A stretch of DNA of 38,207 bases from Flavobacteriales bacterium (GCA_035628535.1 DASPJQ010000071.1:1-38207), one strand, 5' to 3'; shown: positions 3 to 34,375, counted from the first letter of the stretch. Notes: generated by a model not told the origin, from the letters alone. Program-made: numbers and translations.

Positions 3-878
3 TTGCTGCACAAAATTTCTTTTTCCTCGTTGCGCAATAATAACGGAGAGTATATTGCCAACCGGTATCAATTGCATGCACTCACTACAACAGCTTCTCT
101 TTTATCGCCTGCGCCCACGTTCTTTGATCCGTCCAAATCAATCATGGCTCTGTTTGGTGGCGTAAAGTACACTACCGATGAAACTAAAAATGAGGTATGG
201 AAATATTTACCAGGGACTATGAGCGAGGCCAATAACATTAAAAAAACCATTGATAAAAGCGGTTTGACTGCCAGCGCCTATACCGGTATTGATGCTTCTG
301 AAAAAAACATAAAATCACTTGACGGAAAAAAATCGCCAGACGTGTTGCATGTAGCAACGCACGGGTTCTTTTTTGGTGACCCCGAAGAAACCAAAAAACA
401 GGTACATGTTGAAACGGCCGATGTGGACTTCAGGGGCGGATCACGCGGTACAAAAACCCTGGTTGAAAACAGCAACCCGTTAATGCGTAGCGGTATTGTT
501 ATGGCAGGCGCAAACGATATCTGGAATGAAAACAATACCGGGGAAGAAGATGGGGTGCTTACCGCGTATGAAGTTTCCCTTATGAATTTGCAAAATACAA
601 AATTGACCGTACTCTCGGCCTGCGAAACAGGTTTGGGCGATATTAAGGGCAGTGAAGGGGTTTATGGTTTACAACGCGCTTTTCGCATAGCAGGTGTAAA
701 GCAACTCATCATGAGTTTGTGGCAAGTGCCCGATAAAGAAACCGAGGAGTTTATGGTGACTTTTTATACCAACCTGGTTAAGGTTAAAAATACCGGCCAG
801 GCTTTTGAAATGACCCAAAAAACCATGCGCGCCAAATACGAACCGTACTATTGGGGAGCTTTTGTGCTGGTGGAATGA
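3..878 (+). CDS. CHAT domain-containing protein, C-terminal part (the 5' end lies outside the window)
   Basis: The ORF is open from the window edge. It has caspase-like His and Cys motifs (HVATHGFF, LSACETG) followed by LQRAF..AG and SLWQVPD, which is the usual CHAT domain layout. Confidence 0.8.
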   Translation: MLHKISFSSLRNNNGEYIANRYQLHALTTTASLLSPAPTFFDPSKSIMALFGGVKYTTDETKNEVWKYLPGTMSEANNIKKTIDKSGLTASAYTGIDASEKNIKSLDGKKSPDVLHVATHGFFFGDPEETKKQVHVETADVDFRGGSRGTKTLVENSNPLMRSGIVMAGANDIWNENNTGEEDGVLTAYEVSLMNLQNTKLTVLSACETGLGDIKGSEGVYGLQRAFRIAGVKQLIMSLWQVPDKETEEFMVTFYTNLVKVKNTGQAFEMTQKTMRAKYEPYYWGAFVLVE

Positions 879-995: not shown

Positions 996-2090
996 TTAAT
1001 TTGGAAGCGAAAAATAAAACGTTGCGCCCTTATCCACTTCGCCTTCGGCCCAAACCTGCCCGCCATGGCGTGTAATAACGCGTTGTACAATAGCCAGGCC
1101 TATGCCGATGCCTTGAAATTCATTTGTTGAATGCAGCCGCTGGAAAACACCAAACAATTTGTTTTTGTATTCCATGTTGAAGCCAACCCCGTTGTCCTTC
1201 ACAAAATAAATATTCTCGCTTTGACCATTTCGGGCTCCTATTTCAATTCTTGCGTTTTCTTTTTTTGAGGAATATTTTACTGCATTGGAAATAAGGTTTA
1301 CAAAAACCTGGTTCAGCAATGCACCATCGCCTTTTGCGGCCGGTAGTTCAGCAATGCTCCAATCCAGGTTATCAATGGCGGGTTGGTTTTTAAATTCATC
1401 CACCACGTGCGTTAACAATTGGTTCATGTCAACCGTTGTTTTTTTTATTTCCTTTCGTCCCATTAATGAAAATTCAAGTAAGCTGTCAATAAGCTTGTTC
1501 ATTTTTAATGCGTTTTCAATGACTGAATTTAATATCCTGTTACCCTCAGCGTCCAAAACCTCGCTGTAATCTTCACGCAATATGGCCGAATAACTGTTTA
1601 TACTCCGTAAAGGAGCTTTCAAATCATGCGAAACCGAATAGGAAAAAGCTTCAAGTTCTTCGTTTTTGCTTTTAAGGTCACTGTTCAGCTGGACCAGGGC
1701 CAGCTCCTGTTGATGCTTGTCAATAAAAAATTTCACTTTATTAATGAGTATTTCCGGTTGAAAGGGTTTAGTGATAAAACTAAAAGCTCCCTTTTCATAG
1801 CCTTTAAATACATTCAGGTTATCAGTATACACGGCCGAAATAAATATGAAAGGCATATTCATTGTTTTTTCTTCCTCGCGTAAAATACCGGCCAGCTCAT
1901 AACCGTCCATTTCGGGCATTTGTATATCAAGCAATGCCAAAGCAAAATTATGGTGAAGCGTGGCTTTTAAAGCCTCATTGCCACTGGTGGTCTCAACAAG
2001 TTCAATGTCCAGGTCCTTCAACACGGTGCGCAAAGCCACCAGGTTTTCGGGACGATCATCAACAATAAGGATTTTAGGTCTTGTATTCAT
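996..2090 (-). CDS. Response regulator-histidine kinase fusion (REC-HisKA-HATPase_c)
   Basis: N-terminal REC (ILIVDDRPEN, LALLDIQMPEMDG, KP). H-box SHDLKAPLRS, N-box NLISNAVKYS, G1 DNGVGF, G2 GIGIGLAIV. The start lies 18 nt after the stop of the upstream hybrid kinase. Confidence 0.9.
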   Translation of the reverse strand: MNTRPKILIVDDRPENLVALRTVLKDLDIELVETTSGNEALKATLHHNFALALLDIQMPEMDGYELAGILREEEKTMNMPFIFISAVYTDNLNVFKGYEKGAFSFITKPFQPEILINKVKFFIDKHQQELALVQLNSDLKSKNEELEAFSYSVSHDLKAPLRSINSYSAILREDYSEVLDAEGNRILNSVIENALKMNKLIDSLLEFSLMGRKEIKKTTVDMNQLLTHVVDEFKNQPAIDNLDWSIAELPAAKGDGALLNQVFVNLISNAVKYSSKKENARIEIGARNGQSENIYFVKDNGVGFNMEYKNKLFGVFQRLHSTNEFQGIGIGLAIVQRVITRHGGQVWAEGEVDKGATFYFSLPN

Positions 2091-2108
2091 CTTGAATTCT
2101 TTATTTTT

Positions 2109-5100
2109 TTATTTACTTAACCATATACGCATTAATGACAAAAGTCTTTCCACATCAACCGGCTTCGATATATAGTCATTTGCACCTGCATCAATGCATT
2201 TTTGCCTGTCTTCTTTCATGGCCTTGGCGGTTAAGGCTATAATGGGAAGTTTTTTAAATTCTTCACGCATCCGAATACGTTTCATGGCTTCATACCCGTC
2301 CATTTCGGGCATCATTATGTCCATCAATACCATATCAATGTCTTTGTGCATTTCCAGCATATCAATTGCGTTTTTTCCATTGTCGGCTTTAATGACATGC
2401 ATATGGCGTTCGCGCAATATTTTTGATAAGGCAAATACATTTCGCATATCATCGTCAACCACCAGTATTTTCCTGTCTTGAAAAACGGCTTCTTTATCGT
2501 AAAGGCTATTGATGATGGCTTGCTTTGACGGGGGCAGGTTGGTGATGGTACGGTGCAAAAACAAAGCTGTTTCGTCCAGGAGGCGGTCTTCTGATTTTAC
2601 GCCTTTAATAATAATTGTTTCAGCATATTTTTGCAATTCATCGTTTTCTTCACGCGTTAGATCTTTGCCTGTGTAAATAATTATAGGCGGGATACTTTTT
2701 TCTTTGAACGCCTCCAGTTTATAAATAAGTTCAAAGCCGGTCATATCGGGCAAACCAATGTCCAAAACAATGCAATCAATGTGGTTTTGCTTGTACAGGT
2801 CCAACGCTTCGGAAGCTGTTGCTGCTTCCAGGCATTTTACATCACCGTTTCCAATCAGTTTACGTGTGGCCTTTCGCGAATTTTCGTCATCTTCCACGAT
2901 CAACAGGTTTTTCATTTTGCGGCTTACAAAATTTTCTATCCTGTTAAAAGCATCTTCAAGGTCTTTTTTATTGACTGGTTTCATAAGGTATTCAATGGCC
3001 CCGTTTTTTATAGGTTCCAGCGAGCGTTCGTTCACTGAAATAATGTGTACCGGTATGTGCCGTGTTTGCGGGTTGGCTTTAAGTTCATTTAAAACCTGCT
3101 GTCCATGTATGCCTGGTAAATCCAAATCAAGTATAATGGCGTTGGGTTTATACCTGGCGGCAAGTTTCAGGCCATCTTCACCGGTTGCTGCCGATAAAAA
3201 CTTAAACCCTTTTTTCCCGGCTTGTTTGGCAAGGATTGCTGCAAATTTTAAATCATCCTCAATAATCAACAGCACGGTGTCTTTATCTGATATGCGCATG
3301 CGATCATCTTCCAGGGCAGGGTATTCCAGGTATTTTGATGTTTTTGGCTGGTTATAATTATCGCCCATAAGTTTTTGAACCGGCTCTTTTTCAAAACCAC
3401 CGGAAAACGTTGTGTTGAACGGAAGGATTACTGAAAAAACCGAACCTTTATTTACCTGGCTTTCCAGTTTAATTTCGGCACTGAGTAATTTTGCGAGTTC
3501 GCGCGAAATGGAAAGTCCCAGGCCGGTACCGCCATACTTACGGGAAGTGCCTCCGTCAGCCTGCTGAAATGCTTCAAAAATCACCTGACGTTTTTCTTCA
3601 GGAATGCCAATGCCGGTATCGGCAACCGAAATAATAAGAGCATTATGCGTGTAAAGGCGCGCCTGTATGGTTACACTTCCGCGATCAGTAAATTTAATGG
3701 CGTTTGAAACCAGGTTTTTTAATACCTGGTTAAGTCGTTGCGCATCGGTTTTAATGGTTTCAGGTATTCCGTGATCAAGCATCAGTTTCAATTCAATTCC
3801 TTTTTGTTCGGCATGGTGTTTAAAATAGCGCACAAGTTCATTCATTAAGTTGCTCACCGCAACATTTTCAATGTTCAACGACATTTTACCCGCCTCAATT
3901 TTTGATAAATCCAGCACTTCGTTGATCAATGTCAACAGATCAGTACCGCTTTTATAGATTATTTCAGCACTTTCAACCTGCTCGTTATCCAGGTTTTTTT
4001 TCTTGTTTTCCGAAAGGTCTTTTGACAAAATAAGCAAACTGTTCAATGGCGTTCGCAATTCGTGGCTCATGTTTGCGAGAAACTCCGATTTATATTTGCT
4101 GCTTATTTCAAGTTGTTTTGTTTTTTGTTCAATGTCGTATTTGGCGTCTTCAATTTCTTTATTTTTCATTTCAAGAGCCTGTGTCTGTTCTTCCAATTCC
4201 TCATTGGTTATTTGCAGTTCTTCCTGCTGCTGTTTTAAGCTTTGGGCCTGTTCCTCCAGTTCTTCGTTCACCTGCCTTAGTTCTTCCTGCTGGCTTTGCA
4301 GTTCTTCGCTTTGCACCTGGGTTTCTTCCAGAAGTTGCTGAATGCGCTTGCGGGCAATGGCTGAATTTATGCTTATGGCAATGCTTTCCATGCAATTGTC
4401 AAGGAATTCCAGTTCGGTTTCTGAAAATTCATTTAAGCTGCCTATTTCAATTACACCAAGTGTTTTCCCCTCAAACAAAAAAGGTTTAACCAGTAATTGC
4501 CTGGGTTTTGCATTCAATACACCTGATACAATGCGCAGTTCTTCTTCTTTCACATCATTTATTACCAATTGGTTTTGTTTCCTTGCTGCCTGGCCTACCA
4601 GTCCTTCATTTAACGAAAATTCTTTTTTGGCCTTATCAACGCCCTGAAAAGCGTATTGTCCTTCAAGTGTCAGCAACGCGCTTTTATCATCAACCAGGTA
4701 AACGGCCCCAATACCTGCATTGAGGTACGAACACAAAAATTCAATTGTATTGCCGGCCAGCTCCTGGATTGTTTGATCGCCACGCAACTTTTCATTTAAC
4801 TGGTTTTGGCCTGTAGTAAGCCAATTATGTTTTTCATTGGCGGCAGTTGTTTCACGCAACGAAAAGGTCATTTTCTTCAATGCCTGGCCCAATATGTCCT
4901 TATCCGATAAAGGTGAAAAATCGGTTGAATAATTACCCTGCGCAACCTGGTTGGCATTTTGGGTAACCTCCCTGAAGCTGTCATTTATGCGTGCAAGCGA
5001 GTCAACAATGGGTTTTAATTCATCGCTTATATCATTCTGCAGCGTTTCAAAGCCATGCGACCTTGACGCTATTTTTTGCGCTTCGGCTGAAATGCCGGCA

Positions 5101-5741
5101 ATGCGTTTAACAACACTTTTAATAATCCAATATGATATTAGTACTGCAATTATAGCCCCAACAACAATAAGTATGACTACGAGCACTAAAGCATTATTAT
5201 AAGCCCTGCTGTTTTCTTCCTTATCATTCAGCATGGCTTTTGTATTCTTGTCAATGAGCCGCTGCAATTGAGCAATGGCCATATCACGCACCTTTAAACC
5301 GCGGTCAACCGAAATTTTAAAAGCTTTATCATCTTCGCTTTTTACAGCCAGTGAAATAATTTCTTTTAAATCGTCTTTGTAACCATACCATGTCTCTTTA
5401 AATTCTTTTAAAATTTTTCCTCCTCCGGCATCAACAAGGTCCTCCAGTTCATTCATTTTTTTGTCAATTTCAGCAAGGGCTGCATAAATGCGCATGCGGT
5501 AATATTCTTTTTGTGACGGGTCTTTTTCCAGTATAATGTTTTTTTCATGTCTTCCGGCATCCAGCAGGGCAATCATTATTTCATCGGACAGGATGATTTT
5601 TTTAGCCGATTGGTCGGCAATATTCGTGAGCCGCTGGTTAGACTCTGAAATTTTTCCTGACATAAAAAATGCCGTTCCAATAAGCAGTGCCACCAAAAGC
5701 GTAAATCCTGCAAGTAATCGTGTGCGTATTGTAAAATTCAT
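2109..5741 (-). CDS. Hybrid sensor histidine kinase: TM, four-helix-bundle sensor, TM, HAMP, GAF, coiled coil, HisKA, HATPase_c, then three REC domains
   Basis: 1210 aa. Two TM segments flank about 160 aa of helical sensor, as in 4HB_MCP-type receptors. A GAF-like region is present (GIGAVYLVDD...GLVGQAA). H-box MSHELRTPLNS, N-box NLVSNAIKFT, G1 DTGIGI, G2 GGTGLGLSI. The three REC domains have acceptor Asp contexts ILDLDLPG, VLDIGLPDMTG and LMDIMMPEMDG. Confidence 0.9.
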   Translation of the reverse strand: MNFTIRTRLLAGFTLLVALLIGTAFFMSGKISESNQRLTNIADQSAKKIILSDEIMIALLDAGRHEKNIILEKDPSQKEYYRMRIYAALAEIDKKMNELEDLVDAGGGKILKEFKETWYGYKDDLKEIISLAVKSEDDKAFKISVDRGLKVRDMAIAQLQRLIDKNTKAMLNDKEENSRAYNNALVLVVILIVVGAIIAVLISYWIIKSVVKRIAGISAEAQKIASRSHGFETLQNDISDELKPIVDSLARINDSFREVTQNANQVAQGNYSTDFSPLSDKDILGQALKKMTFSLRETTAANEKHNWLTTGQNQLNEKLRGDQTIQELAGNTIEFLCSYLNAGIGAVYLVDDKSALLTLEGQYAFQGVDKAKKEFSLNEGLVGQAARKQNQLVINDVKEEELRIVSGVLNAKPRQLLVKPFLFEGKTLGVIEIGSLNEFSETELEFLDNCMESIAISINSAIARKRIQQLLEETQVQSEELQSQQEELRQVNEELEEQAQSLKQQQEELQITNEELEEQTQALEMKNKEIEDAKYDIEQKTKQLEISSKYKSEFLANMSHELRTPLNSLLILSKDLSENKKKNLDNEQVESAEIIYKSGTDLLTLINEVLDLSKIEAGKMSLNIENVAVSNLMNELVRYFKHHAEQKGIELKLMLDHGIPETIKTDAQRLNQVLKNLVSNAIKFTDRGSVTIQARLYTHNALIISVADTGIGIPEEKRQVIFEAFQQADGGTSRKYGGTGLGLSISRELAKLLSAEIKLESQVNKGSVFSVILPFNTTFSGGFEKEPVQKLMGDNYNQPKTSKYLEYPALEDDRMRISDKDTVLLIIEDDLKFAAILAKQAGKKGFKFLSAATGEDGLKLAARYKPNAIILDLDLPGIHGQQVLNELKANPQTRHIPVHIISVNERSLEPIKNGAIEYLMKPVNKKDLEDAFNRIENFVSRKMKNLLIVEDDENSRKATRKLIGNGDVKCLEAATASEALDLYKQNHIDCIVLDIGLPDMTGFELIYKLEAFKEKSIPPIIIYTGKDLTREENDELQKYAETIIIKGVKSEDRLLDETALFLHRTITNLPPSKQAIINSLYDKEAVFQDRKILVVDDDMRNVFALSKILRERHMHVIKADNGKNAIDMLEMHKDIDMVLMDIMMPEMDGYEAMKRIRMREEFKKLPIIALTAKAMKEDRQKCIDAGANDYISKPVDVERLLSLMRIWLSK
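4140..4345 (-). repeat. Degenerate in-frame repeat encoding a heptad-spaced EEL array inside the hybrid kinase
   Basis: Hand translation gives SEELQSQQEELRQVNEELEEQAQSLKQQQEELQITNEELEEQTQALEMKN. At DNA level, cagttcttc-type units recur. The low complexity produces spurious ORFs on both strands (4003..4489 +, 4201..4395 -). Confidence 0.6.
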
Positions 5742-6325
5742 AATTTTTTAAGCTGGTTGTGTTTGTCAATTCTTATAAGCAAGGCCACTATTTCCCCGAG
5801 TGATAAAACATAATCAGGTTTGACCGCGGCAAGTGCGGCCTCAGGCATTGCGGGCGATTCAGCCGTTTGCGGGTCCTGTACAATTACAAGCCCTCCGTTT
5901 TCTTTCACTTTTAACAGGCCGTTTGCTCCATCATTATTGGATCCGGTAAGCGTTATACCAATCAAACTGGCTGAATAGGCGATTGCTGCCGACTCAAACA
6001 GCACATCAATACTGGGCCGTGAGAAATTTACGCGTTCATCAACAGTCAACGAAAGTGTACGGTCCTTTTCAATCAGCAAATGGTAATTAGGAGGGGCAAT
6101 ATATGCTGTGCCCGGTTTTATTTTTTCTTTTTCATCGGCTTCCTTGATATGTATCTCGCTTTGACTGTCCAGGATTTCAATCCATTTTCCATCGGAGCGG
6201 GCTCCTATGTGTTGTACAACTACAAAAGGTAGGGCGAAACCGGCTGGCAGTGCGCAAAAGATATTCCGCATGGCGTTCATGCCGCCTGCTGAAACCCCCA
6301 TTACAATAGCTTCATACCGTTTCAT
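5738..6325 (-). CDS. cheB: Protein-glutamate methylesterase, CheB catalytic domain only (no receiver domain)
   Basis: 195 aa. Motifs MGVSAGG, VVVQHI and TGSNNDGANGL match the CheB Ser/His/Asp esterase domain. A 4-nt ATGA overlap joins it to the kinase start. Confidence 0.85.
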   Translation of the reverse strand: MKRYEAIVMGVSAGGMNAMRNIFCALPAGFALPFVVVQHIGARSDGKWIEILDSQSEIHIKEADEKEKIKPGTAYIAPPNYHLLIEKDRTLSLTVDERVNFSRPSIDVLFESAAIAYSASLIGITLTGSNNDGANGLLKVKENGGLVIVQDPQTAESPAMPEAALAAVKPDYVLSLGEIVALLIRIDKHNQLKKL

Positions 6326-6328
6326 GCG

Positions 6329-7152
6329 TCAATACTTTTTCTTAAATATGCGTTGCTTCTTGTCAAACACCGTATAGGCCTCATGCAAATCGGTAAAGCG
6401 CAACCCTTCTTTTGATCCTAGGCATAAAATGCCTCCGTGGGCAAGGCTGTCGTGAAATAATTTCTGTACCTTGTTTTGCAGTTCTTTTTCAAAATAAATA
6501 AGTACGTTACGGCAAAGTATAAGGTTTACCTCTGCAAATACGCTATCGGTAACCAGGTTATGGTTTGCCCATACAATATTTTTTTTAGTGCCTGGTTCAT
6601 GATCACGTTATCGTAACTTGAAATATAATAATCGCTGAAACATTCTTTCCCGCCCGCCAGCAGGTAATTGGTAGTATATTCTTTCATCGATGCGTTTGAA
6701 AAGATCCCTTCGCGCGCCTGGTCAAGCGCAAGCTGGTTGAAATCGGTGGCGTATAAAACAGTGCGTTCATAAAGCCCCTCTTCGTGCAATAGAACAGCCA
6801 TTGAATAGGCTTCTTCACCGGTGGAACACCCGGCATGCCATATTTTCAAAAAAGGATATGTTTTTAACAGTGGAACCACGTTATTTCGCAGGGACCGGTA
6901 AAACTCCGGGTCGCGGAACATTTCGGTGACCGTGATGGAAAGGTCCTGTAAAAATTGTGCGGCAAACGATTTTTCCTCCAGTATTTTTGTTTGCATTTGT
7001 GCAATGCCGCTTAAGCCTGAAAGGGTCATGCGGTTTAAAATGCGCCTTCTCACGTGCGCTCTGGAATATTGCCTGAAATCATATCCATATTTCTGGTATA
7101 CATTTTCAAGCAAGCTGTTTATTTCAGCATCAACCAGCATATGGGGTTTCAT
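6329..7152 (-). pseudogene. cheR: CheR-type protein-glutamate O-methyltransferase, interrupted by a 1-nt frameshift in an A8 tract (T8 on the + strand, 6579..6586)
   Basis: The N-terminal 200+ aa (ORF 6526..7182) carry CheR motifs (TEMFRDPEFY, IWHAGCSTGEEAYS). The next frame from 6578 to the TGA at 6329..6331 hand-translates to NIVWANHNLVTDSVFAEVNLILCRNVLIYFEKELQ...DKKQRIFKKKY, a canonical CheR C-terminus. One extra A would fuse the two parts. The likely start is MKPHML at 7152. Confidence 0.8.
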
Positions 7153-7249
7153 GATCCGCAAAACTATAAGGCGTATAAACATTACGCGTTTTTTCCTGAC
7201 AACCAGGGGGCATTTGAAAAAATTGTATAGACAGGTATTCGCGTGTTTT

Positions 7250-7257
7250 CAAATATA
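7250..7257 (-). promoter_or_regulatory. Candidate Bacteroidota sigma-A -7 box (TATATTTG) upstream of the cheR operon
   Basis: Exact match to TAnnTTTG on the minus strand, about 70-100 nt upstream of the candidate cheR starts. This rests on motif match and position only. Confidence 0.3.
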
Positions 7258-7279
7258 TAAAAACCAACCTACAAAATCA

Positions 7280-7301
7280 ACCGTAAAAATACGGTGTTTT
7301 T
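7280..7301. terminator. Short hairpin between the Na/Pi transporter gene and the cheR operon
   Basis: ACCGTA-AAAA-TACGGT, followed by GTTTTTT on the + strand and TGATTTTG on the minus strand. The stem is only 6 bp. Confidence 0.3.
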
Positions 7302-7382
7302 TGCGTAGAAATACGGGGTTTTTGTAAACTAAAACAATTCATTATTGTCTTCATGCGACCAATTCATGGCACAGGGAGCTGC

Positions 7383-9155: not shown

Positions 9156-9542
9156 TCAGCTTTTATATTTCCTTTCACCTTGAAAATTTTCAGCGTAATA
9201 TCCATGCGTAACGATAATGTCTCCAACAATGTGATCATTGAATGTTTCCAGGTCTTCTGCAGGTACCCACAATTCATTGTGAATTGGACCGCCAACATTT
9301 TCAACCTTGAACTTGCTAACATAGTCCTCCAGCACTTCAAACCGCGTAACATAACCTGAGCCGGAGGCATTCACGTTCCAGTCGCGGGCAATTTGAACGG
9401 CATATTCCTCATTCAATACCGGGTAAAAAATGGGCTGTTGTGCCAACCGTTTGGGAAAACGTTTCCACCCTGACTCTTCAATGAGTTTTAATTCATTGGG
9501 ACCAACCGGCCGCCACAATGTTATAGTATTTTTATTATTCAT
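9156..9542 (-). CDS. Conserved hypothetical protein, 128 aa, co-transcribed with the macro-domain gene
   Basis: Clean ORF whose start overlaps the macro gene stop by 8 nt. No TM segment or signal peptide. The motif [41 protein letters not shown] feels familiar, but I cannot name the family. Confidence 0.6.
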
Positions 9543-10053
9543 TTAATAATGTTTCATATAATTTATAATTCTCCGCATCAAAACACACCAACAAAACCAA
9601 TTCAATGGCCGAATTCGTTTCCATAAATTCCTGCATTGTTTTCACTGTAATTTCGGCAGCCAGTTGTTTTGGGAAACCATAAACACCTGTGCTGATATTT
9701 GGAAAAGCAATTGTTTTGCAGCCATTTTCAACAGCTAACCGCAATGAATTCCTGTAGCAATTCGCCAATTTTTCAGGTTCGCCTTTATGGCCACCGTTCC
9801 ATACAGGACCAACTGTATGGATCACGTATTTTGCCGGTAATTTTCCTGCTGTTGTAATTACCGCCTCACCGGTTTTGCATCCGCCTTGTTTTGCAACAAT
9901 TTTCCGGCAATCGTCCAATATGGACGGTCCACCCGCACGGTGAATGGCCCCGTCAACACCACCACCGCCCATGAGCGAAGTATTGGCTGCGTTGACAATG
10001 GCATCAACGGTTTGTTTGGTAATGTCACCCCGGATGAGTTTTATTTTGTTCAC
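9535..10053 (-). CDS. Macro domain protein (O-acetyl-ADP-ribose deacetylase / ADP-ribose-binding, YmdB-like)
   Basis: 172 aa. [34 protein letters not shown] and [14 protein letters not shown] are hallmark macro-domain motifs. Confidence 0.9.
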
Positions 10054-10524: not shown

Positions 10525-11127
10525 TTATTTATTGTGAATATACCCCATTTCCTTATTTTTCAAATGGTAAATGTATTTTAAGGCATCTTTCCTGCCCGGT
10601 TCGGGGTTAAACATATCGGGTTGTATTTTTTTGCGGTATTTTTTTAAAAGCTCTTCTTCCAGTTCGCGGTGGGGTGCATAGGTTTTGTCTTTAAGAATGT
10701 GTTTTACCTGGAATCCCAACTCAACCAGTGCAACCGACACCATGAAAAACCGGTGGCAGCTCAGGGGATCGGCCTCGGCACACATAAGGGCCAGGTTATG
10801 GTTTTGGTTATACATTTCAAGCAATATTTTAATCCCCTTTTTAAAAGGTGCCCACTGCCGCATTTTTTCAAAATCAACCTGGCGGTTTTCATCCAGTATT
10901 AACGGATTGGTTTGCCTTGCGCCAAAAGCATCGGGTAAATGAATGTATTCAAGGTGGTGCTGGTTTAAATATTCCTTAAGTGATTTGCCGTTGTATTGCG
11001 GATTATACCGGCTGGCGGCAATGCTGCGCACATCAACCACGCATGAAATGTTGTAACATTGCAAGAGTTCCAGGAAATATTCCTTTGAATGATTGGAATG
11101 GCCTATGGTATAAACTGGACTGGTCAC
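10525..11127 (-). CDS. DUF488 family protein
   Basis: VYTIGHSNHS...VVDVRS......YNPQ near the N-terminus and the CAEADPLSCHR motif are typical of DUF488. I place the start at GTG 11125..11127, which overlaps the upstream TAG stop (TAGTG). The ORF-track start at 11175 would overlap the upstream gene by 49 nt. Confidence 0.75.
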   Translation of the reverse strand: MTSPVYTIGHSNHSKEYFLELLQCYNISCVVDVRSIAASRYNPQYNGKSLKEYLNQHHLEYIHLPDAFGARQTNPLILDENRQVDFEKMRQWAPFKKGIKILLEMYNQNHNLALMCAEADPLSCHRFFMVSVALVELGFQVKHILKDKTYAPHRELEEELLKKYRKKIQPDMFNPEPGRKDALKYIYHLKNKEMGYIHNK

Positions 11128-11369
11128 TATTCCACTACGCGTATGCCCACCCTGCGCGCTTCGCAGGCGTTGCAATAAGTTTTGCCGTCACAACCCTCAA
11201 CCCCGGGACAGTCGGCCGGGCAATAGTCATGCAAATGCTGGTAATATAATTCCCTGTCAAAACACGATGCTTTTTTCTTACAGGAGGTTGGGAACGAGAT
11301 CATGAGCAATACAATTATGAAAAGTAACGGTTTTGGAACCATCCCTGCTATTTTTCCCTGTGTTTCCAT
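11127..11369 (-). CDS. Small lipoprotein with a Kazal-like Cys-rich motif
   Basis: Hydrophobic signal ending ...SFPTSC (Cys followed by KKK). The C-terminal CPADCPGVEGCDGKTYCNACEARRVG resembles the bacterial Kazal-type PVCGCDGKTY.NAC.A..G pattern. An alternative start is at M10 (11342). Confidence 0.55.
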   Translation of the reverse strand: METQGKIAGMVPKPLLFIIVLLMISFPTSCKKKASCFDRELYYQHLHDYCPADCPGVEGCDGKTYCNACEARRVGIRVVE

Positions 11370-21133: not shown

Positions 21134-23101
21134 ATGAAAAAACTATGGCTGGTGCCGTTGTTGCTGGCATTTAATGCCCATGCAAAAGACCTTGAATTAA
21201 AAACCAAAATTACCAATGTAACCGTTTTCCAGAGCGGGGCGCAGGTTACCCGAACGGGCTCATTAACGTTGCCCTCAGGTGAACACGAAGTGGTCATTCA
21301 TGATGCGACTTCGCTGTTGAAAAAAGAGAGCATCCAGGTAAAAGGCGAGGGCAACTTTACCATTCTTTCGGTCAACCACCAGGTTGATTTACGCGAACAG
21401 AACATGGACAAAAGCAAAACAGCCGAATTGGAGGCCAAACAAAAAAACCTGATGCGCCAAATGGAAGACCTTTCGGTAAAAATTGAAGTGCTGCGCAACG
21501 AGGAAGGAGTGATCAATAACATGCAGCAAGTTACCCCGGCCACTGAGGGCATAACGGTTGAGCAGGTGGGTAAGGCCCAGGAACTGGTGCGCGTCAAACT
21601 CTCCTCAATAAAAAACGATAAACTTTTACTGAGCCGGCAAATGGAAGAGTTGTATGAACAATACCAGAAGGTAACGCAACAGTTAACGGCCATACGCACG
21701 CCTAAACAAAATGTACGTTATGAAATTGTGGTCAGGGTACTGGTAAAGACCGAGACCAAAGGCGACTTTTCATTGACCTATATTGTTCCCAATGCACGCT
21801 GGTACCCCAGTTATGATTTGCGCGTGAAAAACATTGCAGAGCCTATGGTTATTGATTATAAAGCAAATGTTACCCAACAAACAGGTGAAGACTGGACCGA
21901 TGTAAAACTGAAATTATCAACGGGTGACCCGAGTGAATCATCGCAAAAACCAATTGTGTCGCCCTGGCTGTTGTATTTGAACCAGCATTATGTGCAACCC
22001 CGCCAGCAAAGTAATTTTTACCGGTATACCGATGCGAAATTTACAAAGGTGAATGGAACTGTACTGGACAGGCAAACAGGCGAACCGTTACCGTTTTGCC
22101 CGGTTATGGTATATGGAACAAACATTGGCGCCACAACTGATGCCGATGGAAATTTCAATTTGATTTTGCCTGAAAATGCCAGTTATTTAAACCTGAAATA
22201 CCTTGGTTATACCGAAAAAAATGTTCCCATCAAAGCATCGCCCATGAAAATTTATTTGCAGCCATCAAATACAAAGTTGGCTGAAGTTTCAATTATCAAC
22301 GAACAGGAAGCGGGTGAGGTTTCGGCTGAAGACCCACAATTCAGCCAGTTTACCCCTAAAGTAAATGAACGGGAAAAATTGTATTTCAGCAATGGACGCA
22401 AGTATGGTGAAAATGACATAACAACAACTATAAACGGCAACGTTGAAAAAATAGAAGCCGGTAATGTAAGTGTGGCGCCAAGCATGAACATTGTAAGCAC
22501 CGAATTTGTAATTGAAGAGAAATACACCATTCTTTCGGACCCAAAAAACATCATTGTCTCCATTCAGTCCATACAGGCCAACGCAGGATACCAATACTAT
22601 TGTGCCCCCCGTCTGGAAAAAGACGTTTTCCTGACCGCGCAAATGATAGATTGGGAACAATACAATTTACTGGAAGGCCAGGCCAACGTGTTTTTTGAAG
22701 GTACCTTTATTGGCAGCACGGTTTTAGACACGCGGTTTTTGACCGATACACTTGAGATTTCGCTAGGGCGCGATAAAAGTGTAAAGGTGGAACGAAAAAA
22801 ATCAAAAGAGTTCAACAAACGCCAGGCGCTGGGCAGCAATAACATTGCTTACCGTTACTGGGACATAGCCGTTCGTAACGGCAAACAGCAACCTGTCAAT
22901 ATCATGATTGAAGACCAGTTTCCCCTCTCGGCCGACAGTAAAATTGAAGTGAAACGTGAAAGCAAAGGCGATGGCAAACTGGATGATAAAACTGGCATTG
23001 TTACCTGGACGTATGACAAACTTATACCCAGTGAAACAAAAAACACCGAATTGAAATACAGCGTGAAGTATCCGAAGGGAACATTTATTGGGTTAGACTA
23101 A
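21134..23101 (+). CDS. DUF4140/DUF4139 (MuiA-like) family secreted protein with an inserted CarboxypepD_reg-like domain, paralog A
   Basis: Signal peptide. N-terminal VTVFQSGAQVTR motif, coiled coil, NARWYPSYDLRV, GEDWTDVKLKLSTGDP, and C-terminal LLEGQANVFFEGTFIG...LEISLGRDKSVKVERK. The insert GTVLDRQTGEPLPFCPVMVYGTNIGATTDADGNFNL matches carboxypeptidase-regulatory-like domains. Confidence 0.75.
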   Translation: MKKLWLVPLLLAFNAHAKDLELKTKITNVTVFQSGAQVTRTGSLTLPSGEHEVVIHDATSLLKKESIQVKGEGNFTILSVNHQVDLREQNMDKSKTAELEAKQKNLMRQMEDLSVKIEVLRNEEGVINNMQQVTPATEGITVEQVGKAQELVRVKLSSIKNDKLLLSRQMEELYEQYQKVTQQLTAIRTPKQNVRYEIVVRVLVKTETKGDFSLTYIVPNARWYPSYDLRVKNIAEPMVIDYKANVTQQTGEDWTDVKLKLSTGDPSESSQKPIVSPWLLYLNQHYVQPRQQSNFYRYTDAKFTKVNGTVLDRQTGEPLPFCPVMVYGTNIGATTDADGNFNLILPENASYLNLKYLGYTEKNVPIKASPMKIYLQPSNTKLAEVSIINEQEAGEVSAEDPQFSQFTPKVNEREKLYFSNGRKYGENDITTTINGNVEKIEAGNVSVAPSMNIVSTEFVIEEKYTILSDPKNIIVSIQSIQANAGYQYYCAPRLEKDVFLTAQMIDWEQYNLLEGQANVFFEGTFIGSTVLDTRFLTDTLEISLGRDKSVKVERKKSKEFNKRQALGSNNIAYRYWDIAVRNGKQQPVNIMIEDQFPLSADSKIEVKRESKGDGKLDDKTGIVTWTYDKLIPSETKNTELKYSVKYPKGTFIGLD

Positions 23102-23146
23102 TAAGCTAATGTGCAAATAAGCTAAGCTAATGAAGAAGTTAAAAAA

Positions 23147-25255
23147 ATGAAAACTATGAAAAAATTAAACATAAGACTATATTTCTTTTTTGTATCTCAG
23201 CGCCTTTGTGTGACACTATGTCTTGCATTTGTTTGCGTGAACCTTACCGCGAAGGACCATGAAATGAAAACCGCATTGACCGAAGTAACCGTTTTCCAGA
23301 GCGGAGCGCAGGTTAAACGCATTGGTTCAACAACCATACCTGCCGGTGAAACCGAAATAAAAATTAAGGACGCCACGGCCCTGCTGCTGGAAGAAAGTAT
23401 ACAGGTGAAAGGCGAAGGAAATTTCACCATCTTGTCAGTCAACCACCAGGTAGACCTGCAGGAAATGGATAACCAAAAGTCAAAATGGGACGCCCTTGAG
23501 GCCAAACAAAAAAACCTGATGCGACAAATGGAAGAGTTGAGTGTAAAAATACAGGTGCTGAATGCCGAAGAGAACACCATCATGAACCTGAAACAAACCA
23601 CAACGCAAACCAAAGGTGTTACGGTTGAACAAATGGCCAAAGCCCAGGAAATGATCAGGTTGAAATTAACGGAAATTAAAAATGAAAAGTTGAAGCATTC
23701 CAGGGCGGTGCTTGATTTGTTTGATGAACACAAAAAAGTATTCCAGCAATTGGTTGCGCTAAAAACGCCCAAACAAAGCCTGAGCTATGAAATCGTGATC
23801 AAGGTGTTTGCCAAAGCTGAAACAAAAGGGAGTTTTGAGATAACTTACGTTACTCCCAATGCGCGCTGGTATCCCACTTACGATTTGAGGGTAAAAGACG
23901 TTGCATCACCCATGGTGATTGAATACAAAGCCAATGTCACGCAGGAAAGCGGTGAAGACTGGAACAATGTAAAACTTAAATTGTCAACCGGTGATCCGTC
24001 ACGTTCATCCAAAAAACCCGCGGTAGAGCCCTGGCTGATTTATTTGAACCAAAATTACATACAGCCACGTGCCGCAAACAGTTTTTTCCAATACACCGAT
24101 GCGCGTTTTACACACATGACCGGTACCGTTTTAAATTCAGAAACCGGTGAGCCTGTATCGTGGTGCGGCATTCATGTGCCCGGCACCAACATTGGCACTA
24201 CAGCCGATGTTGATGGTAAGTTTTCGTTGGTATTGCCGGTGAACATACGCAGCATTTACGTTTATGCTATCGGATACAACGCACAAACTGTGAGCGTAAC
24301 CGAAAAAGACATGAAAATAAAATTGGTTAAGAAATATATGCCCTTAAACGAAACCGTAAAAACCGATTACGAAAGGCAATTGGCCACGGTGCGGTCGCCA
24401 ACATTCAAAACCGACTACGATGGAGATTTATATTCGGTTGATATTCCTGTTGAACCTATTTACGAGGAAACAAAAAAGATGGAAGAACACTTGATGGAAT
24501 TGCACAATGAATACAGCTGGAGCGGTGCAGATGCTTCGGTTAACTTATCGAGCAGCTCGCCTAAGACCTACGGTGCCTATAACATTACAGTAACCGATTC
24601 AAACGGAGCCATTGCCTGGAACCCAACGGCCGCTAAAACCCTGAACATAGTAAGCACCGAGTTTAACATTGAAGAAAAATACACAATCCCGTCAGACCCC
24701 AAAAACATTACCGTCATGATTGAAAGCATTACGGTACCGGCTACATACCAATATTACTGTGCCCCGCGTTTGGACAAAGATGTTTTCATTACCGCACAGG
24801 TGATGAACTGGGAGCAATACAACTTGTTGGAAGGGCAGGCCAATGTGTTTTTTGAAGGGACATTTACCGGTCAAACGTTTTTTGATACGCGGTATTTGGT
24901 GGATACGCTTGAAATCTCGCTGGGCCGTGACAAATCCATCAAGGTGGAACGAAAAAAAGCTAAGGAATACAACAAAAAACAAGTCCTTGGAAGCGATAAC
25001 ATTGCTTACCGCCATTGGGACATTGGTGTGCGCAATGCCAAGAAGCAGGCCATTGATATTATTGTTGAAGACCAGTTCCCGCTCTCAGCCGACAGCAAGA
25101 TTGAGGTAACACAGGAGGAACGCAGCGGAGGCGAACTGAATGAAAAAACAGGGAGTGTAAAATGGACTTTTAAGCTGGAACCATCAACCACCAGAAATCT
25201 GGCGTTGCGGTATAAGGTCAAGTTCCCGAAAGGGAATTTTGTTGGGCTTGATTGA
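23147..25255 (+). CDS. DUF4140/DUF4139 (MuiA-like) family secreted protein with an inserted CarboxypepD_reg-like domain, paralog B
   Basis: Collinear with paralog A and carries the same motifs. It starts 45 nt after A. It is 702 aa because the non-alignable segment after the inserted domain is longer. The start may be an internal Met. Confidence 0.75.
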   Translation: MKTMKKLNIRLYFFFVSQRLCVTLCLAFVCVNLTAKDHEMKTALTEVTVFQSGAQVKRIGSTTIPAGETEIKIKDATALLLEESIQVKGEGNFTILSVNHQVDLQEMDNQKSKWDALEAKQKNLMRQMEELSVKIQVLNAEENTIMNLKQTTTQTKGVTVEQMAKAQEMIRLKLTEIKNEKLKHSRAVLDLFDEHKKVFQQLVALKTPKQSLSYEIVIKVFAKAETKGSFEITYVTPNARWYPTYDLRVKDVASPMVIEYKANVTQESGEDWNNVKLKLSTGDPSRSSKKPAVEPWLIYLNQNYIQPRAANSFFQYTDARFTHMTGTVLNSETGEPVSWCGIHVPGTNIGTTADVDGKFSLVLPVNIRSIYVYAIGYNAQTVSVTEKDMKIKLVKKYMPLNETVKTDYERQLATVRSPTFKTDYDGDLYSVDIPVEPIYEETKKMEEHLMELHNEYSWSGADASVNLSSSSPKTYGAYNITVTDSNGAIAWNPTAAKTLNIVSTEFNIEEKYTIPSDPKNITVMIESITVPATYQYYCAPRLDKDVFITAQVMNWEQYNLLEGQANVFFEGTFTGQTFFDTRYLVDTLEISLGRDKSIKVERKKAKEYNKKQVLGSDNIAYRHWDIGVRNAKKQAIDIIVEDQFPLSADSKIEVTQEERSGGELNEKTGSVKWTFKLEPSTTRNLALRYKVKFPKGNFVGLD

Positions 25256-30940: not shown

Positions 30941-33900
30941 CTACTGCTTCATCACTTTTCGCGTTACAACGGTCTTGTCAGTACGCAATGTAATAAAATA
31001 AGTACCATTGTTATAATTTGATAAATCAACATCCACGGCTTCGGCAGTCAGACCGTTGAATTTATGTGCAAAAACTTTTTGCCCAAGCACATCGCAAACT
31101 TCAATAAAACCATTGGTTGCCTCGGTAAAATTGGCATCAACATAAATGTGACCATTTGTGGGATTTGGGTAAACGTTTAATTCCAAAAAACTGTTTAAAA
31201 CAATATCATCTACATTGTTTGTTAAACCAATGGTGAATTGATAATAAATTTGCCCGCCAAAGTCGGCATTGAAACTTTTTAGGATTGAGCCGGTGGTTTT
31301 GCGTAAGCGCGCCAGTCCCACACCTTGCGCTGTATTGGCCCAGAATGATAACCCGTCTTCACCGGTATCAATCAATTCAAATTCATAACATCCATCCGGC
31401 AAATGAAGGGTGTCTTTATAATTGGTATTCGCGGTTAATCCACTTGTACGGTCCAGTATCACGGTTCCTGTATAAGCGTCTTTGAGCGTATATGAAGTTT
31501 CCCACGGATAATTATTGGTTTTTACTTCAACAAAAAAATCGGCAGGGAGTACAGGCGGATACGTGTACGGGGTGGTTATTGAATTGTTGTAGGAATATTG
31601 GTCAGGCAAGCCATTTGGATTACTTACAGTCACATTGAAAGTGCTTGCACCTGTAGCCCAGGCAAAGGTTCCCAATATCACTTCTTCGGTTTCCATGAAT
31701 GCAAGGTTCCCGGTCCAGTTATAAACACTTGGGGTTGCACCATTCATGCCATAGGTAATGGTTAGCGATGTAAGATTGTTTGAACCCGTATTCTGAATTT
31801 TTATAACGGGGTGAGAACACACGGGATTCATGCGCGTCCACATTTGGTTTTGGCTCGGGCTCAACACATCAACCAGGGCCGCATCGTTTGTGAAATTTGG
31901 CGCCCCATAGTGAACAAGCTGGTCTTCTATTTGATAATAGTCCCAGCCTCCTGTATGCGAATACGCCTGTGCATCGTGATCAAGCACAGCTGTTGTTCCT
32001 GCAGTAACATACGGTGTCAATTCAAAATCATAGGTCCATACCTCGGCACCGGGACACCAATTGGCACGGTCGTATACCCAGGTGCCGCCTTGCGGATACA
32101 ACGGGTTGCGGTCACAGTTGTCGCGCCATACGTTTTTTACAAATTGCTGGACCCCGTCAACTTTATAATAATGGTCCTTGGCGCAAAATTCTGCGCAGTT
32201 TTCAGGGGTATCCATGCCGTGACCCGTAACACGCGATTTCCACCGTGAATTAACGGCACCGGCCGGTATATTCACCGTAATTGGTGTCAGGTAATTGTCA
32301 ATGGGATCGCTTGGGTTGCCGTAGTTGAACCCGCCATTCCATAAATTTTCAATGCTTATGATATCGCGCGGAGGAATTCCTTTGATCATTAAAAATTCCA
32401 TTTCCAGCAATTCCTGCCAGTTGCCCGCTTCCAAATGCACACTGTCGTGCAACAAGGTGCGGTAATCGCTCACATCAAATGTCCAGGTCCAGCCTGTTCC
32501 CAGCGATAACCCTATTCCATACGGTGTAATGTAACGTGCCAACTCGTAACGTATGACCTGTGGATATAAATTGTAATAGTCATACGAACCGGCCAGCAAC
32601 GTACTGTCAGGCGTCACGTAAACGGAATCAATGGCATTGCCCATGGCATCGTACAAATACTGGTTGTAATAATCGGGCCAAACAAGCAACGTATCGGTTG
32701 CAATGCCAGGGTTTGTGACCGAATCACCATAAATAAAAACGGTGAGTGGTGCGTTCATGGTTGAATCAATCACAAGCACGCTGTCAATGGCTGTTGTAAA
32801 CACACCTTGTTCAAATATGATGTTCGGGCGATTAACCGTTTCGAAAAAGCCATATTGGAGATCGGCAGCGTTCTTAAGCGGATTACCTGTGCCAATAAAG
32901 GTCGCATCAGGATGAGCGCCCGGGGCCGCATCGCTTGCTGTGGTGAAATTACCCTCGTCAAAATGATAGTACGCAACAAGGTTTGAATAATAAGGATGTG
33001 TTGCGTCAATTGTTTTACGCATGTAGTTTTGAATGGTGGCAGCATCCAATTCAGTATTGAACACAGTAAATTCATCCATGTTCCCTTCATAACTGAGTGA
33101 ACCACTCCACAATCCTTTTCCCAGGCGGAATTTTTTGATTTTTGGAATGTCCTTTACTTTACCGGTACCGCTGTGCCACAATACACCGTTCAGGTAAATT
33201 TTCATGGAACCCGTGGCAACATTTTTTGTAAAGGTCCAGTAATTCCATTGCCCTTCAATTTCGCTTGTTGTAGCGGCCTTGTTGATGCGGTCATAACTTG
33301 TACCGCTAAAACCGGCATCCCAGTATACATTGCTATCGCTCCAGGGCATGTGGGCATTCAATACGCGGTTGCTCAATGTATCAAACGCCTCGAAACAGGT
33401 ACCGTCCATGGGTTGCATGGCAGGATCGCCATAGGCCCAGTAACTGATTGTTACAGCCGAGTCAATGCTGTATAGGTCATTGTTCACGGCCAGTTCAATG
33501 TATGACGCAGCGCCAAAATCGGCACAGCGGTCTTCGCCTGACCGCGTTATGCCTGAAACAAATGGCGTTGCAGAAGCGCTCACTACGTTATCAATTCCAT
33601 TAGCCGTATTATCATAGGTAATTTCTATAAGCAGGTTAGAGGTACCGTCCCAGTTAAAAGCGTTGGTCAACGAAATGGCATTCCACCCGGGACTTAAAAA
33701 CGTTGTGTTTTTCAGGTACACGGTAATGAAACCTGAATTGTCAAGTGTTTCCTGCGTAAGCGTGTCAGCCGTTGTTGATTTAATGCGAATGGTAAGGTTG
33801 CGCATGGTTGAACCGAGTGATTGCAGGTAAAACTGTAGCGCAGTAATGTCACCGGCAACCATTCCTGCTGCGGTCATTTCACTGGCGCGCCATAAATACT

Positions 33901-34375
33901 GGCTGCGCGAAATTACCGAAGCAGTTCCAAAAGGATTGGAGGATGGAACAGTACCTGTTCCAATGGTGTCACGTGTTAACGAAGCAGTGTCGGTATGCGT
34001 GGCAAAATACTGCCAGGTAGGATAAAACGTATAGGACGGTGTATTCATGTATGGAGTACTGGCCGGCATTGAACCGTTAACGGTGTACACGGGCTGGTTG
34101 ATTAACGATGAATCCATCAATCCCGTATGTTGATATAAATAGGTATAGGTCAAATAATCCCATTCGCCACAGGCAGGACTCATGGATGGGTTGCACTTTA
34201 ATTTGTAACGCATCAGGATTTTTTCAAAACGGATGGTATCATCGGGAAAAACAAACCACGCATTTTGCGGTGAGCCAAATGTGAAAGTAGGTACATGAAT
34301 GGTATCACCGTGCTGTGCATTGGCCTTAAACGTAAAAGACAGTAAAAGTGTAATTGCAAAAAGGAATTTTTTCAT
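30941..34375 (-). CDS. T9SS-secreted multidomain protein: PNGase F-like core interrupted by a large insertion containing a LamG-like domain, with a C-terminal type-A sorting domain
   Basis: Signal peptide. Motifs CGEWDY (aa 69-74), RYITPYG (about aa 610), CAEFCAKDH and NWCPGAEV parallel the CDEWD / ITPY / CAEWC / WCPG motifs of PNGase F as I remember them. GNMDEFTVFNTELDAATIQNYM is a Laminin_G_3-type motif. The C-terminal LNVYPNPTNGHIYV...TYFITLRT matches the T9SS C-terminal domain. Confidence 0.8.
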   Translation of the reverse strand: MKKFLFAITLLLSFTFKANAQHGDTIHVPTFTFGSPQNAWFVFPDDTIRFEKILMRYKLKCNPSMSPACGEWDYLTYTYLYQHTGLMDSSLINQPVYTVNGSMPASTPYMNTPSYTFYPTWQYFATHTDTASLTRDTIGTGTVPSSNPFGTASVISRSQYLWRASEMTAAGMVAGDITALQFYLQSLGSTMRNLTIRIKSTTADTLTQETLDNSGFITVYLKNTTFLSPGWNAISLTNAFNWDGTSNLLIEITYDNTANGIDNVVSASATPFVSGITRSGEDRCADFGAASYIELAVNNDLYSIDSAVTISYWAYGDPAMQPMDGTCFEAFDTLSNRVLNAHMPWSDSNVYWDAGFSGTSYDRINKAATTSEIEGQWNYWTFTKNVATGSMKIYLNGVLWHSGTGKVKDIPKIKKFRLGKGLWSGSLSYEGNMDEFTVFNTELDAATIQNYMRKTIDATHPYYSNLVAYYHFDEGNFTTASDAAPGAHPDATFIGTGNPLKNAADLQYGFFETVNRPNIIFEQGVFTTAIDSVLVIDSTMNAPLTVFIYGDSVTNPGIATDTLLVWPDYYNQYLYDAMGNAIDSVYVTPDSTLLAGSYDYYNLYPQVIRYELARYITPYGIGLSLGTGWTWTFDVSDYRTLLHDSVHLEAGNWQELLEMEFLMIKGIPPRDIISIENLWNGGFNYGNPSDPIDNYLTPITVNIPAGAVNSRWKSRVTGHGMDTPENCAEFCAKDHYYKVDGVQQFVKNVWRDNCDRNPLYPQGGTWVYDRANWCPGAEVWTYDFELTPYVTAGTTAVLDHDAQAYSHTGGWDYYQIEDQLVHYGAPNFTNDAALVDVLSPSQNQMWTRMNPVCSHPVIKIQNTGSNNLTSLTITYGMNGATPSVYNWTGNLAFMETEEVILGTFAWATGASTFNVTVSNPNGLPDQYSYNNSITTPYTYPPVLPADFFVEVKTNNYPWETSYTLKDAYTGTVILDRTSGLTANTNYKDTLHLPDGCYEFELIDTGEDGLSFWANTAQGVGLARLRKTTGSILKSFNADFGGQIYYQFTIGLTNNVDDIVLNSFLELNVYPNPTNGHIYVDANFTEATNGFIEVCDVLGQKVFAHKFNGLTAEAVDVDLSNYNNGTYFITLRTDKTVVTRKVMKQ

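Follow-up and report, generated by a model that had tools for sequence, protein, structure and literature searches.

A Bacteroidota cheR-cheB-kinase cassette as a likely member of the RsbK/CfcA class of methylation-tuned hybrid histidine kinases

This analysis concerns a cassette of four co-oriented minus-strand genes, which was identified by open reading frame (ORF) calling within positions 996..7182 of a 38,207-nt stretch of DNA from a Flavobacteriales bacterium (GCA_035628535.1 DASPJQ010000071.1:1-38207). The whole stretch, referred to here as the window, belongs to a contig of 68 kb in the ENA metagenome assembly ERZ27257313. The four genes encode a CheR-type methyltransferase, a CheB-type methylesterase, a hybrid sensor kinase and a second kinase with a receiver (REC) domain. 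Judged by sequence homology, this Bacteroidota locus likely belongs to the RsbK/CfcA class of membrane hybrid kinases, with an output tuned by methylation of the kinase itself. The combination of CheR/CheB genes with such a kinase has already been described, and the cassette is of a known type, real and widely conserved. Its genes and gene parts are as follows (SAM, S-adenosylmethionine):

6526..7182, minus strand: 5' part of cheR (CheR_N and the first two thirds of the SAM-binding domain), 218 aa, ending at a premature stop
6579..6586, minus strand: A8 homopolymer, CTAAAAAAAAT on the minus strand, a 1-nt deletion relative to CTA AAA AAA AAT (L-K-K-N)
6329..6578, minus strand: 3' part of cheR in the shifted frame (NIVWANHNLVTDSVFAEVNLILCRNVLIYF...KKKY, stop 6329..6331), recognised by alignment to orthologues
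5738..6325, minus strand: cheB, a stand-alone methylesterase/deamidase domain without receiver, 195 aa (Pfam, catalytic triad)
2109..5741, minus strand: hybrid sensor kinase of the RsbK/CfcA type, 1210 aa (Pfam and alignments)
996..2090, minus strand: REC-HisKA-HATPase kinase, 364 aa, with Asp55 and His155, the fourth gene of the conserved cassette (Pfam)

The tight packing of these genes had been described in a first-pass annotation, and all its junction coordinates are exact: the cheR TGA ends at 6329 and is followed by 3 nt (CGC) and the cheB ATG at 6325, cheB and the kinase gene overlap in the ATGA at 5738..5741, and a gap of 18 nt separates the kinase stop from the start of the REC-kinase gene. 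The annotation was also right that the operon encodes no output domain and that its last gene is a REC-HisKA-HATPase kinase (Pfam). It had further described a CheR/CheB pair; in this contig the pair is not intact, since a 1-nt frameshift at the A8 run interrupts cheR.

The class assignment is based on comparison with reference loci, which were found by searching genome collections with the primer sequences printed in the Pseudomonas and Bacillus papers; L074 is a cfcA orthologue locus from the P. putida group and L078 the rsbK-rsbM locus of a B. cereus-group species. The alignment of the window kinase with RsbK starts at residue 3 and reaches the C-terminal receiver, with 30% identity over 953 aa (E 1e-122), and the third receiver of the window kinase (REC3) is 54% identical to the RsbK receiver. 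The identity with the CfcA orthologue amounts to 42% over 587 aa, from the GAF domain to the first receiver (REC1) and including the helix between GAF and kinase core (E 1e-137). Once its frameshift is repaired, CheR, which consists of the Pfam domains CheR_N and CheR, shares 50% identity with RsbM over 266 aa (E 4e-103), as opposed to E-values of 1e-31 and 3e-17 against the chemotaxis CheRs of known structure from B. subtilis and Salmonella, respectively. Both CheR and CheB fall far under the cut-offs of the NCBIfam chemotaxis equivalogs (82.6 vs 435 bits). The full-length alignment with RsbK supports an RsbK/CfcA-type architecture, although HAMP stays below the threshold here and the sensor matches 4HB_MCP_1 instead of CHASE3. 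The content of the Pseudomonas cfc cluster (three-receiver kinase, cheR, cheB and REC-kinase) is likewise found together here, in a different gene order.

Two systems of this class have been studied. In B. cereus, RsbK is a hybrid kinase with the architecture CHASE3-HAMP-GAF-S-helix-HK-REC (S-helix, signalling helix; HK, histidine kinase), encoded alongside the CheR-type enzyme RsbM; RsbM methylates the RsbK signalling helix and thereby represses the signal to RsbY and sigma-B, while the C-terminal REC is inhibitory (PMC4574943, PMC12848376). The SAM-dependent methylation of RsbK by RsbM was demonstrated in vitro and genetically (PMC4574943, citing Chen et al. 2012). The RsbK/RsbM work reports 127 RsbK-like kinases across 10 phyla (PMC4574943, PMC12848376). 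In Pseudomonas, the first component of the cfcABCDE cluster is a three-receiver hybrid kinase with CHASE3 and GAF domains, and cheR, cheB and the gene of another REC-containing kinase come after it; the hybrid kinase is named CfcA in P. putida, BmsA in P. alkylphenolica and 3082 in P. brassicacearum (PMC4951495, PMC8175716). CfcA is required to activate the diguanylate cyclase CfcR, with a link to salt sensing (PMC10950880), and the cfcABCDE/BmsA cluster controls cyclic di-GMP (c-di-GMP), biofilm and salt responses (PMC4951495, PMC8175716, PMC10950880). The earlier statement that neither substrate nor role of this class had been worked out is therefore superseded, as RsbK/RsbM controls sigma-B and cfc/BmsA controls c-di-GMP, biofilm and salt responses. 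The central proposal of the first-pass annotation, the direct glutamate methylation of a histidine kinase rather than of a methyl-accepting chemotaxis protein (MCP), gains support from the homology to RsbK/RsbM and from the conserved gene association, on which grounds it appears probable.

The hybrid kinase is divided into the following parts (TM, transmembrane segment):

5121..5738, minus strand: sensor module with TM1 (aa 9-27), an extracytoplasmic four-helix bundle (4HB_MCP_1, aa 2-178) and TM2 (aa 184-207)
4842..5120, minus strand: HAMP-like linker, aa 208-300 (weak Pfam match at aa 251-281; alignment to the RsbK HAMP region)
4368..4775, minus strand: GAF domain, aa 323-458 (Pfam)
4098..4349, minus strand: signalling helix, a predicted methyl-accepting coiled coil, aa 465-548, with Glu-Glu (EE) pairs at nt 4185..4328
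3414..4091, minus strand: kinase core of HisKA (aa 551-618; phospho-His H560, nt 4062..4064) and HATPase_c (aa 666-776)
2133..3275, minus strand: three receiver domains (Response_reg) with the acceptors Asp872, Asp994 and Asp1141 (Pfam, RsbK alignment)

The build given in the first-pass annotation is thereby largely reproduced, namely the four-helix bundle flanked by two hydrophobic TM segments, GAF, the coiled coil, HisKA/HATPase and three REC domains. HAMP, which it had also listed, stays below the Pfam threshold in the window kinase (17.7 bits) but is called in several orthologues; compared with RsbK, the linker contains a 46-aa insertion.

The methyl-acceptor is probably the coiled coil between the GAF domain and the phospho-His. 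In this segment, EE pairs start at aa 472, 479, 486, 493, 507 and 514, with a spacing of exactly 7 or multiples of 7. All six pairs occupy heptad positions b/c and are flanked by an unbroken Leu/Ile stripe at d and by polar Asn/Gln/Ser at a, and residues 472-520 comprise 16 acidic and 2 basic residues. An AlphaFold2 monomer model, calculated from an alignment of 25 orthologues and used for its secondary structure alone (pTM 0.46), shows aa 441-578 as one continuous helix that runs into DHp helix 1, with pLDDT values of 84-90 across the EE array. When 37 kinases adjacent to CheR/CheB were aligned without gaps, anchored on the invariant YKSEFLANMSHELRTPL box, QQEELxxxNEELEE modules were found at a fixed distance from the His, with a mean of 6.2 EE pairs in the 80 residues before it. 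The dominant phase, expressed as (His minus second Glu) mod 7, is 3 in 36 of these 37 relatives and also in the window kinase. For 50 other kinases from the same loci the mean is 0.64 EE pairs, without phase preference; since the 37 kinases were chosen by helix similarity, this control excludes only that the EE feature is a general property of kinases. Five EE pairs (486/7, 493/4, 496/7, 507/8 and 514/5) are invariant in 26 Bacteroidota orthologues averaging 69% identity, and four of the five belong to the heptad series. In the RsbK orthologue, positions 439 and 446 are the second Glu of the heptads SEEL and AEEL, in the same phase as all six window pairs. RsbK homology and the EE-phase statistics point to the helix between GAF and DHp, and the acceptor implied by the first-pass annotation, the chemoreceptor-like N-terminal region (TM, four-helix bundle, HAMP), was discarded on these grounds. 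The paper on the S-helix (Anantharaman et al. 2006) makes no mention of CheR or CheB.

Several points weigh against methylation control of this helix, or against its details. The classical methylation consensus of MCPs is Glx-Glx-x-x-Ala-Ser/Thr. The kinase helix does not fit it, as its motifs read N/Q-E-E-L-x-x-x and the EE pairs are followed by L-Q-S-Q, L-R-Q-V, L-E-E-Q, L-Q-I-T and L-E-E-Q, so that the assignment of the methyl sites derives solely from RsbK homology. The exact sites in RsbK are reportedly Glu439 and Glu446 (work of Chen and co-workers, 2012). The sensor is of the 4HB_MCP_1 type, whereas both RsbK and CfcA carry CHASE3. RsbM is an orphan enzyme that has no partner esterase, and it therefore provides no precedent for the action of CheB. 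In the contig analysed, cheR is frameshifted. The methylation biochemistry comes from B. cereus only (PMC4574943) and from no Bacteroidota member. In addition, other cfc mutants, including those in cheR and cheB, kept the CfcA-dependent crinkly phenotype (an unpublished remark of the authors in PMC4951495), which leaves a role of methylation outside Bacillus unproven.

The association of the genes is broadly conserved. Among 72 loci retrieved with the CheB sequence as query, 36 combine a receiver-less CheB, a CheR and a hybrid kinase with an EE helix, usually in the order kinase-cheR-cheB-(REC-kinase), and they span nine phyla: Bacteroidota, Thermodesulfobacteriota, Bacillota, Acidobacteriota, Pseudomonadota, Bdellovibrionota, Myxococcota, Verrucomicrobiota and Actinomycetota. 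A further 12 of the CheB-anchored loci encode fused CheB-CheR-(PAS)-kinase proteins and 3 encode actinobacterial pairs of CheB and a CheR-coiled-coil protein; in 15/15 of these fused or paired loci, arrays of the type NEELQSxNEELExxKEELQSLNEEL directly follow the CheR domain. A literature search on the fused CheB-CheR proteins returned nothing relevant. In the Streptomyces and Nocardia loci L029, L034 and L043, the receiver-less CheB is followed by a CheR of about 620 aa with nine consecutive NEELxxx heptads and no kinase, possibly a self-contained methyl-accepting protein.

The loci anchored on the kinase all belong to Bacteroidota (Chitinophagaceae, Flavobacteriaceae, Pedobacter, Ohtaekwangia, Algoriphagus and Paludibacter), and the 120 orthologues listed from 1279 matches (E <= 1e-20) are 63-74% identical to the window kinase. 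Conservation across the phylum, which the first-pass annotation had put forward as a check, was confirmed: where the flank is sufficient, cheR, usually together with cheB, lies directly upstream of the kinase gene and a REC-(PAS)-kinase gene downstream. The exceptions are L093 (REC-(PAS)-kinase upstream), L098 (cheRB 4 kb upstream) and L105 and L110 (only cheB remnants). In L094, L095, L097, L098, L102, L105, L107 and L112, a stand-alone receiver gene of about 146 aa follows the REC-(PAS)-kinase; the window has none. The window REC-kinase (996..2090) scores 328 bits against the NCBIfam model of LvrA, a virulence regulator kinase of Leptospira, and matches its C-terminal half (466-817), so the REC-HisKA-HATPase unit recurs as a module in other hybrid kinases.

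The frameshift in cheR raises the question of the state of the system in this genome. Alignment indicates that the true cheR start is probably the ATG at 7152 (M11). The final 66 codons sit in another frame, which ends at 6329. Since they encode the CRNVLIYF part of the SAM fold, a product of 218 aa that lacks them should have no activity. Adding one A to the A8 run restores a 284-aa CheR, which aligns without gaps to its orthologues through NQ(A/S)LKKNIVWANHNLVTDSVFAEV. Programmed frameshifting or slippage at the A run was considered and ruled out as a designed feature. At the tract the orthologues read NQSLKKNIVWANHNL in a single frame, the relatives' codons being CTG AAA AAA AAT or CTG AAG AAA AAC, and in L002 and L010 the tract is interrupted by G/C (AAGAAAAAC), so it is no conserved slippery site. 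Low-level transcriptional slippage may nevertheless occur there.

On this basis the cassette could be decaying here, with a real cheR frameshift, a kinase freed from methylation control and a CheB that is idle or acts as a deamidase only. This concerns the state of the system and not its kind and is compatible with membership of the RsbK/CfcA class; we regard it as a serious possibility, though not as the expected case. It is favoured by the deletion of the C-terminal third of the SAM fold, by an A tract that is not kept as a slippery site, and by a recurrence of enzyme loss in two other Bacteroidota metagenome-assembled genomes (MAGs), where tblastn detected only cheB remnants between an intact cheR and an intact kinase (L105:3183-3641, 18 aa; L110:6563-6893, 56 and 12 aa). 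Together with the window frameshift, these remnants suggest a recurrent loss of the modifying enzymes with retention of the kinase. However, a single-base indel in a 9-A homopolymer of a short-read metagenome assembly (the contig name is MEGAHIT-style) is a typical assembly or population artefact. No other lesions occur, the frame of the shifted 3' part is still 100% open with high conservation, and cheR is intact in 17/17 distinct Bacteroidota orthologues examined. The orthologous kinase of a further MAG is itself split into two ORFs by a frameshift (L111:6992-10633); frameshifts, or else genuine pseudogenes, are thus not uncommon in MAG assemblies of this sort.

The position of the modifying enzymes next to the kinase might also be incidental, if CheR and CheB were ordinary adaptation enzymes of chemotaxis serving MCPs encoded elsewhere. 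Pfam and NCBIfam do place both proteins in the CheR/CheB families, some Bacteroidetes encode chemoreceptors (PMC7390727), and the sequence seen covers the window, not the rest of the genome. Nevertheless, we consider this very improbable, as the adjacency to a kinase with an EE helix is kept in the nine phyla and throughout Bacteroidota, CheR is far nearer to RsbM than to chemotaxis CheRs, and both proteins score far under the equivalog cut-offs mentioned above. The CheB of the window consists of the CheB_methylest domain alone (Pfam; residues 7-182 of 195 aa), as the first-pass annotation had noted, with the catalytic triad Ser12/His39/Asp132, and lacks the N-terminal receiver that is phosphorylated by CheA in the canonical pathway. 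The CheR and CheB paralogues of the homologous P. putida cluster were ruled out for chemotaxis (Garcia-Fontana 2013, as cited in PMC4951495). A scan of 20 other large ORFs of the window (37015..37866 unscanned) revealed no CheA, CheW, MCP signalling domain (MCPsignal) or output domain; the earlier claim that the cassette stands without CheA, CheW and MCP thus holds for the 38-kb window and is limited to it.

Equally remote is the idea that the enzymes modify another partner, the downstream REC-kinase or a response regulator, as reported for CheR acting on PhoP in Salmonella: non-MCP substrates of CheR exist (PMC8546571) and the REC-kinase is also conserved in the cassette, but it has only 2 EE pairs before its His and no phase, it is the EE-heptad array that co-varies with the CheR/CheB clade of the cassette, both in trans and in cis fusions, and the substrate of RsbM is RsbK.

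With methylation of the kinase itself as the favoured explanation, the following mechanism is proposed. The extracytoplasmic helical-bundle sensor, the HAMP-like linker and the GAF domain are followed by a highly acidic coiled coil of about 85 residues that is continuous with the DHp helix carrying His560, and then by the ATPase domain and the three receivers. The genes of CheR, an apparent RsbM orthologue, and of the receiver-less CheB are, to judge from their packing, co-transcribed with the kinase gene. CheR with SAM would methylate the second (c-position) Glu of the heptad-phased EE pairs, and this would neutralise a highly charged helix with polar a layers that is probably only marginally stable. 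The neutralisation could alter the packing or register of the coiled coil at the DHp domain; by analogy with RsbK, docking of the inhibitory REC3 would be favoured and kinase output lowered. CheB would strip the methyl groups and may deamidate neighbouring Gln. Isolated CheB catalytic domains are known to be active, and this CheB, having no receiver domain, should be constitutively active; feedback would then have to arise from the helix, through its conformation or its state-dependent accessibility, and not from phosphorylation of CheB. The phosphoryl signal would leave via the neighbouring REC-kinase and via regulators encoded elsewhere; neither an Hpt nor an output domain was found to be encoded locally. 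If the cheR break is real, an unmethylated kinase with high output would be expected, because loss of RsbM in B. cereus gives constitutively high signalling.

More tentatively, the EEL-heptad helix might be a general, portable methyl-accepting module that differs from the MCP signalling domain and is served by a dedicated lineage of CheR and receiver-less CheB, either in trans, as for RsbK/CfcA-type kinases, or in cis, as in the fused CheB-CheR-PAS kinases, although we consider this broader proposal unlikely on present grounds. If it were true, the module would give an ordinary two-component phosphorelay of non-flagellated Bacteroidota a reversible sensory adaptation, that is, a methylation memory, with its feedback residing in the conformation of the helix instead of CheB phosphorylation, and the recurrent knock-outs of cheR (window) or cheB (L105, L110) would represent an evolutionary locking of the kinase set-point. 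Within Bacteroidota, the RsbK/CfcA-type kinase ranks with the most conserved proteins of signalling, always accompanied by cheR and usually by cheB. A cultivable carrier from this phylum would be a clean system for studying reversible methylation of a histidine kinase, provided that it has no chemotaxis pathway. For genome annotation, "CheR/CheB" genes of this kind should not be counted as evidence of chemotaxis.

Upstream of the cassette lies one further region:

7183..7382, minus strand: intergenic region upstream of cheR, a 200-nt gap with weak promoter evidence

The cassette probably has its own promoter in this region, after a small hairpin downstream of a Na/Pi-cotransporter gene, which is indicated by weak evidence. 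The hairpin at 7295..7280 on the minus strand (ACCGTATTTTTACGGT with a T-rich tail), located 3' of the cotransporter gene, is a possible terminator. It is followed by a candidate promoter, TTGATT-17-TATATT, at 7280..7252 (minus strand), and a Bacteroidetes-type TAtaTTTG spotted by eye at 7257..7250 (minus strand) is a possible cassette promoter. A scan for sigma-70 promoters and terminators gave counts no higher than in shuffled sequences, the scan model not being one for Bacteroidota promoters.

On the other side of the cassette, the next gene beyond the REC-kinase encodes a CHAT-domain protein on the opposite strand (3..878). Elsewhere in the window, a Macro-domain protein (9535..10053, minus strand) overlaps a 128-aa ORF without Pfam match (9156..9542), and a DUF488 protein (10525..11175, minus strand) is encoded near the Macro-domain gene; this group is possibly ADP-ribose-related. 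A tandem pair of paralogues at 21134..25255 (plus strand) each combine DUF4140, a CarboxypepD_reg-like domain and DUF4139. A 1144-aa protein (30941..34375, minus strand) with LamG-like and PNGase-F C-terminal-like domains carries a C-terminal sorting domain of the type IX secretion system (T9SS), a marker of Bacteroidota.

Among the known systems, RsbK-RsbM offers a kinase that is homologous from end to end, with a helical-bundle sensor, HAMP, GAF, an S-helix with EEL heptads, HisKA/HATPase and a C-terminal REC, next to a CheR-type methyltransferase; there, in Bacillus, methylation of the kinase helix has been demonstrated. It differs in its single REC as opposed to three here, in its CHASE3 sensor, in the gene order rsbK-rsbM and in the lack of a CheB. 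The Bacillus output consists of the PP2C regulator RsbY and sigma-B, and no RsbY-type PP2C, sigma or anti-sigma genes, including sigB, rsbV and rsbW, were found among the 20 other scanned ORFs of the window.

The Pseudomonas cfc/BmsA clusters share all four components, namely a three-receiver hybrid kinase with a GAF domain, a CheR, a non-chemotaxis CheB and a REC-containing kinase, and no CheA, CheW or MCP genes are reported for the clusters as described, which include 3082-3079 of P. brassicacearum. In contrast to the order cheR-cheB-kinase-REC-kinase found here, they are arranged as kinase-cheR-cheB-REC-kinase; their sensor is CHASE3, and their known output is the unlinked REC-GGDEF-EAL protein CfcR, which acts on c-di-GMP, biofilm and salt responses.

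The MCP/CheR/CheB system of chemotaxis resembles the cassette in its enzyme families, in adjacent Glu pairs on an acidic coiled coil after a TM-sensor-HAMP unit and in a presumed repacking upon charge neutralisation. Unlike in chemotaxis, the window encodes no MCP signalling hairpin, CheA or CheW, CheB lacks a receiver, the site motif is N/Q-E-E-L and the modified protein would be the kinase itself. Finally, in the fused CheB-CheR-(PAS)-kinases and the actinobacterial pairs of CheB and CheR-coiled-coil proteins, enzymes and acceptor helix are joined in one polypeptide that has no TM sensor or GAF domain, but they belong to the same lineage, with 28-39% identity, and carry the same EEL-heptad array.

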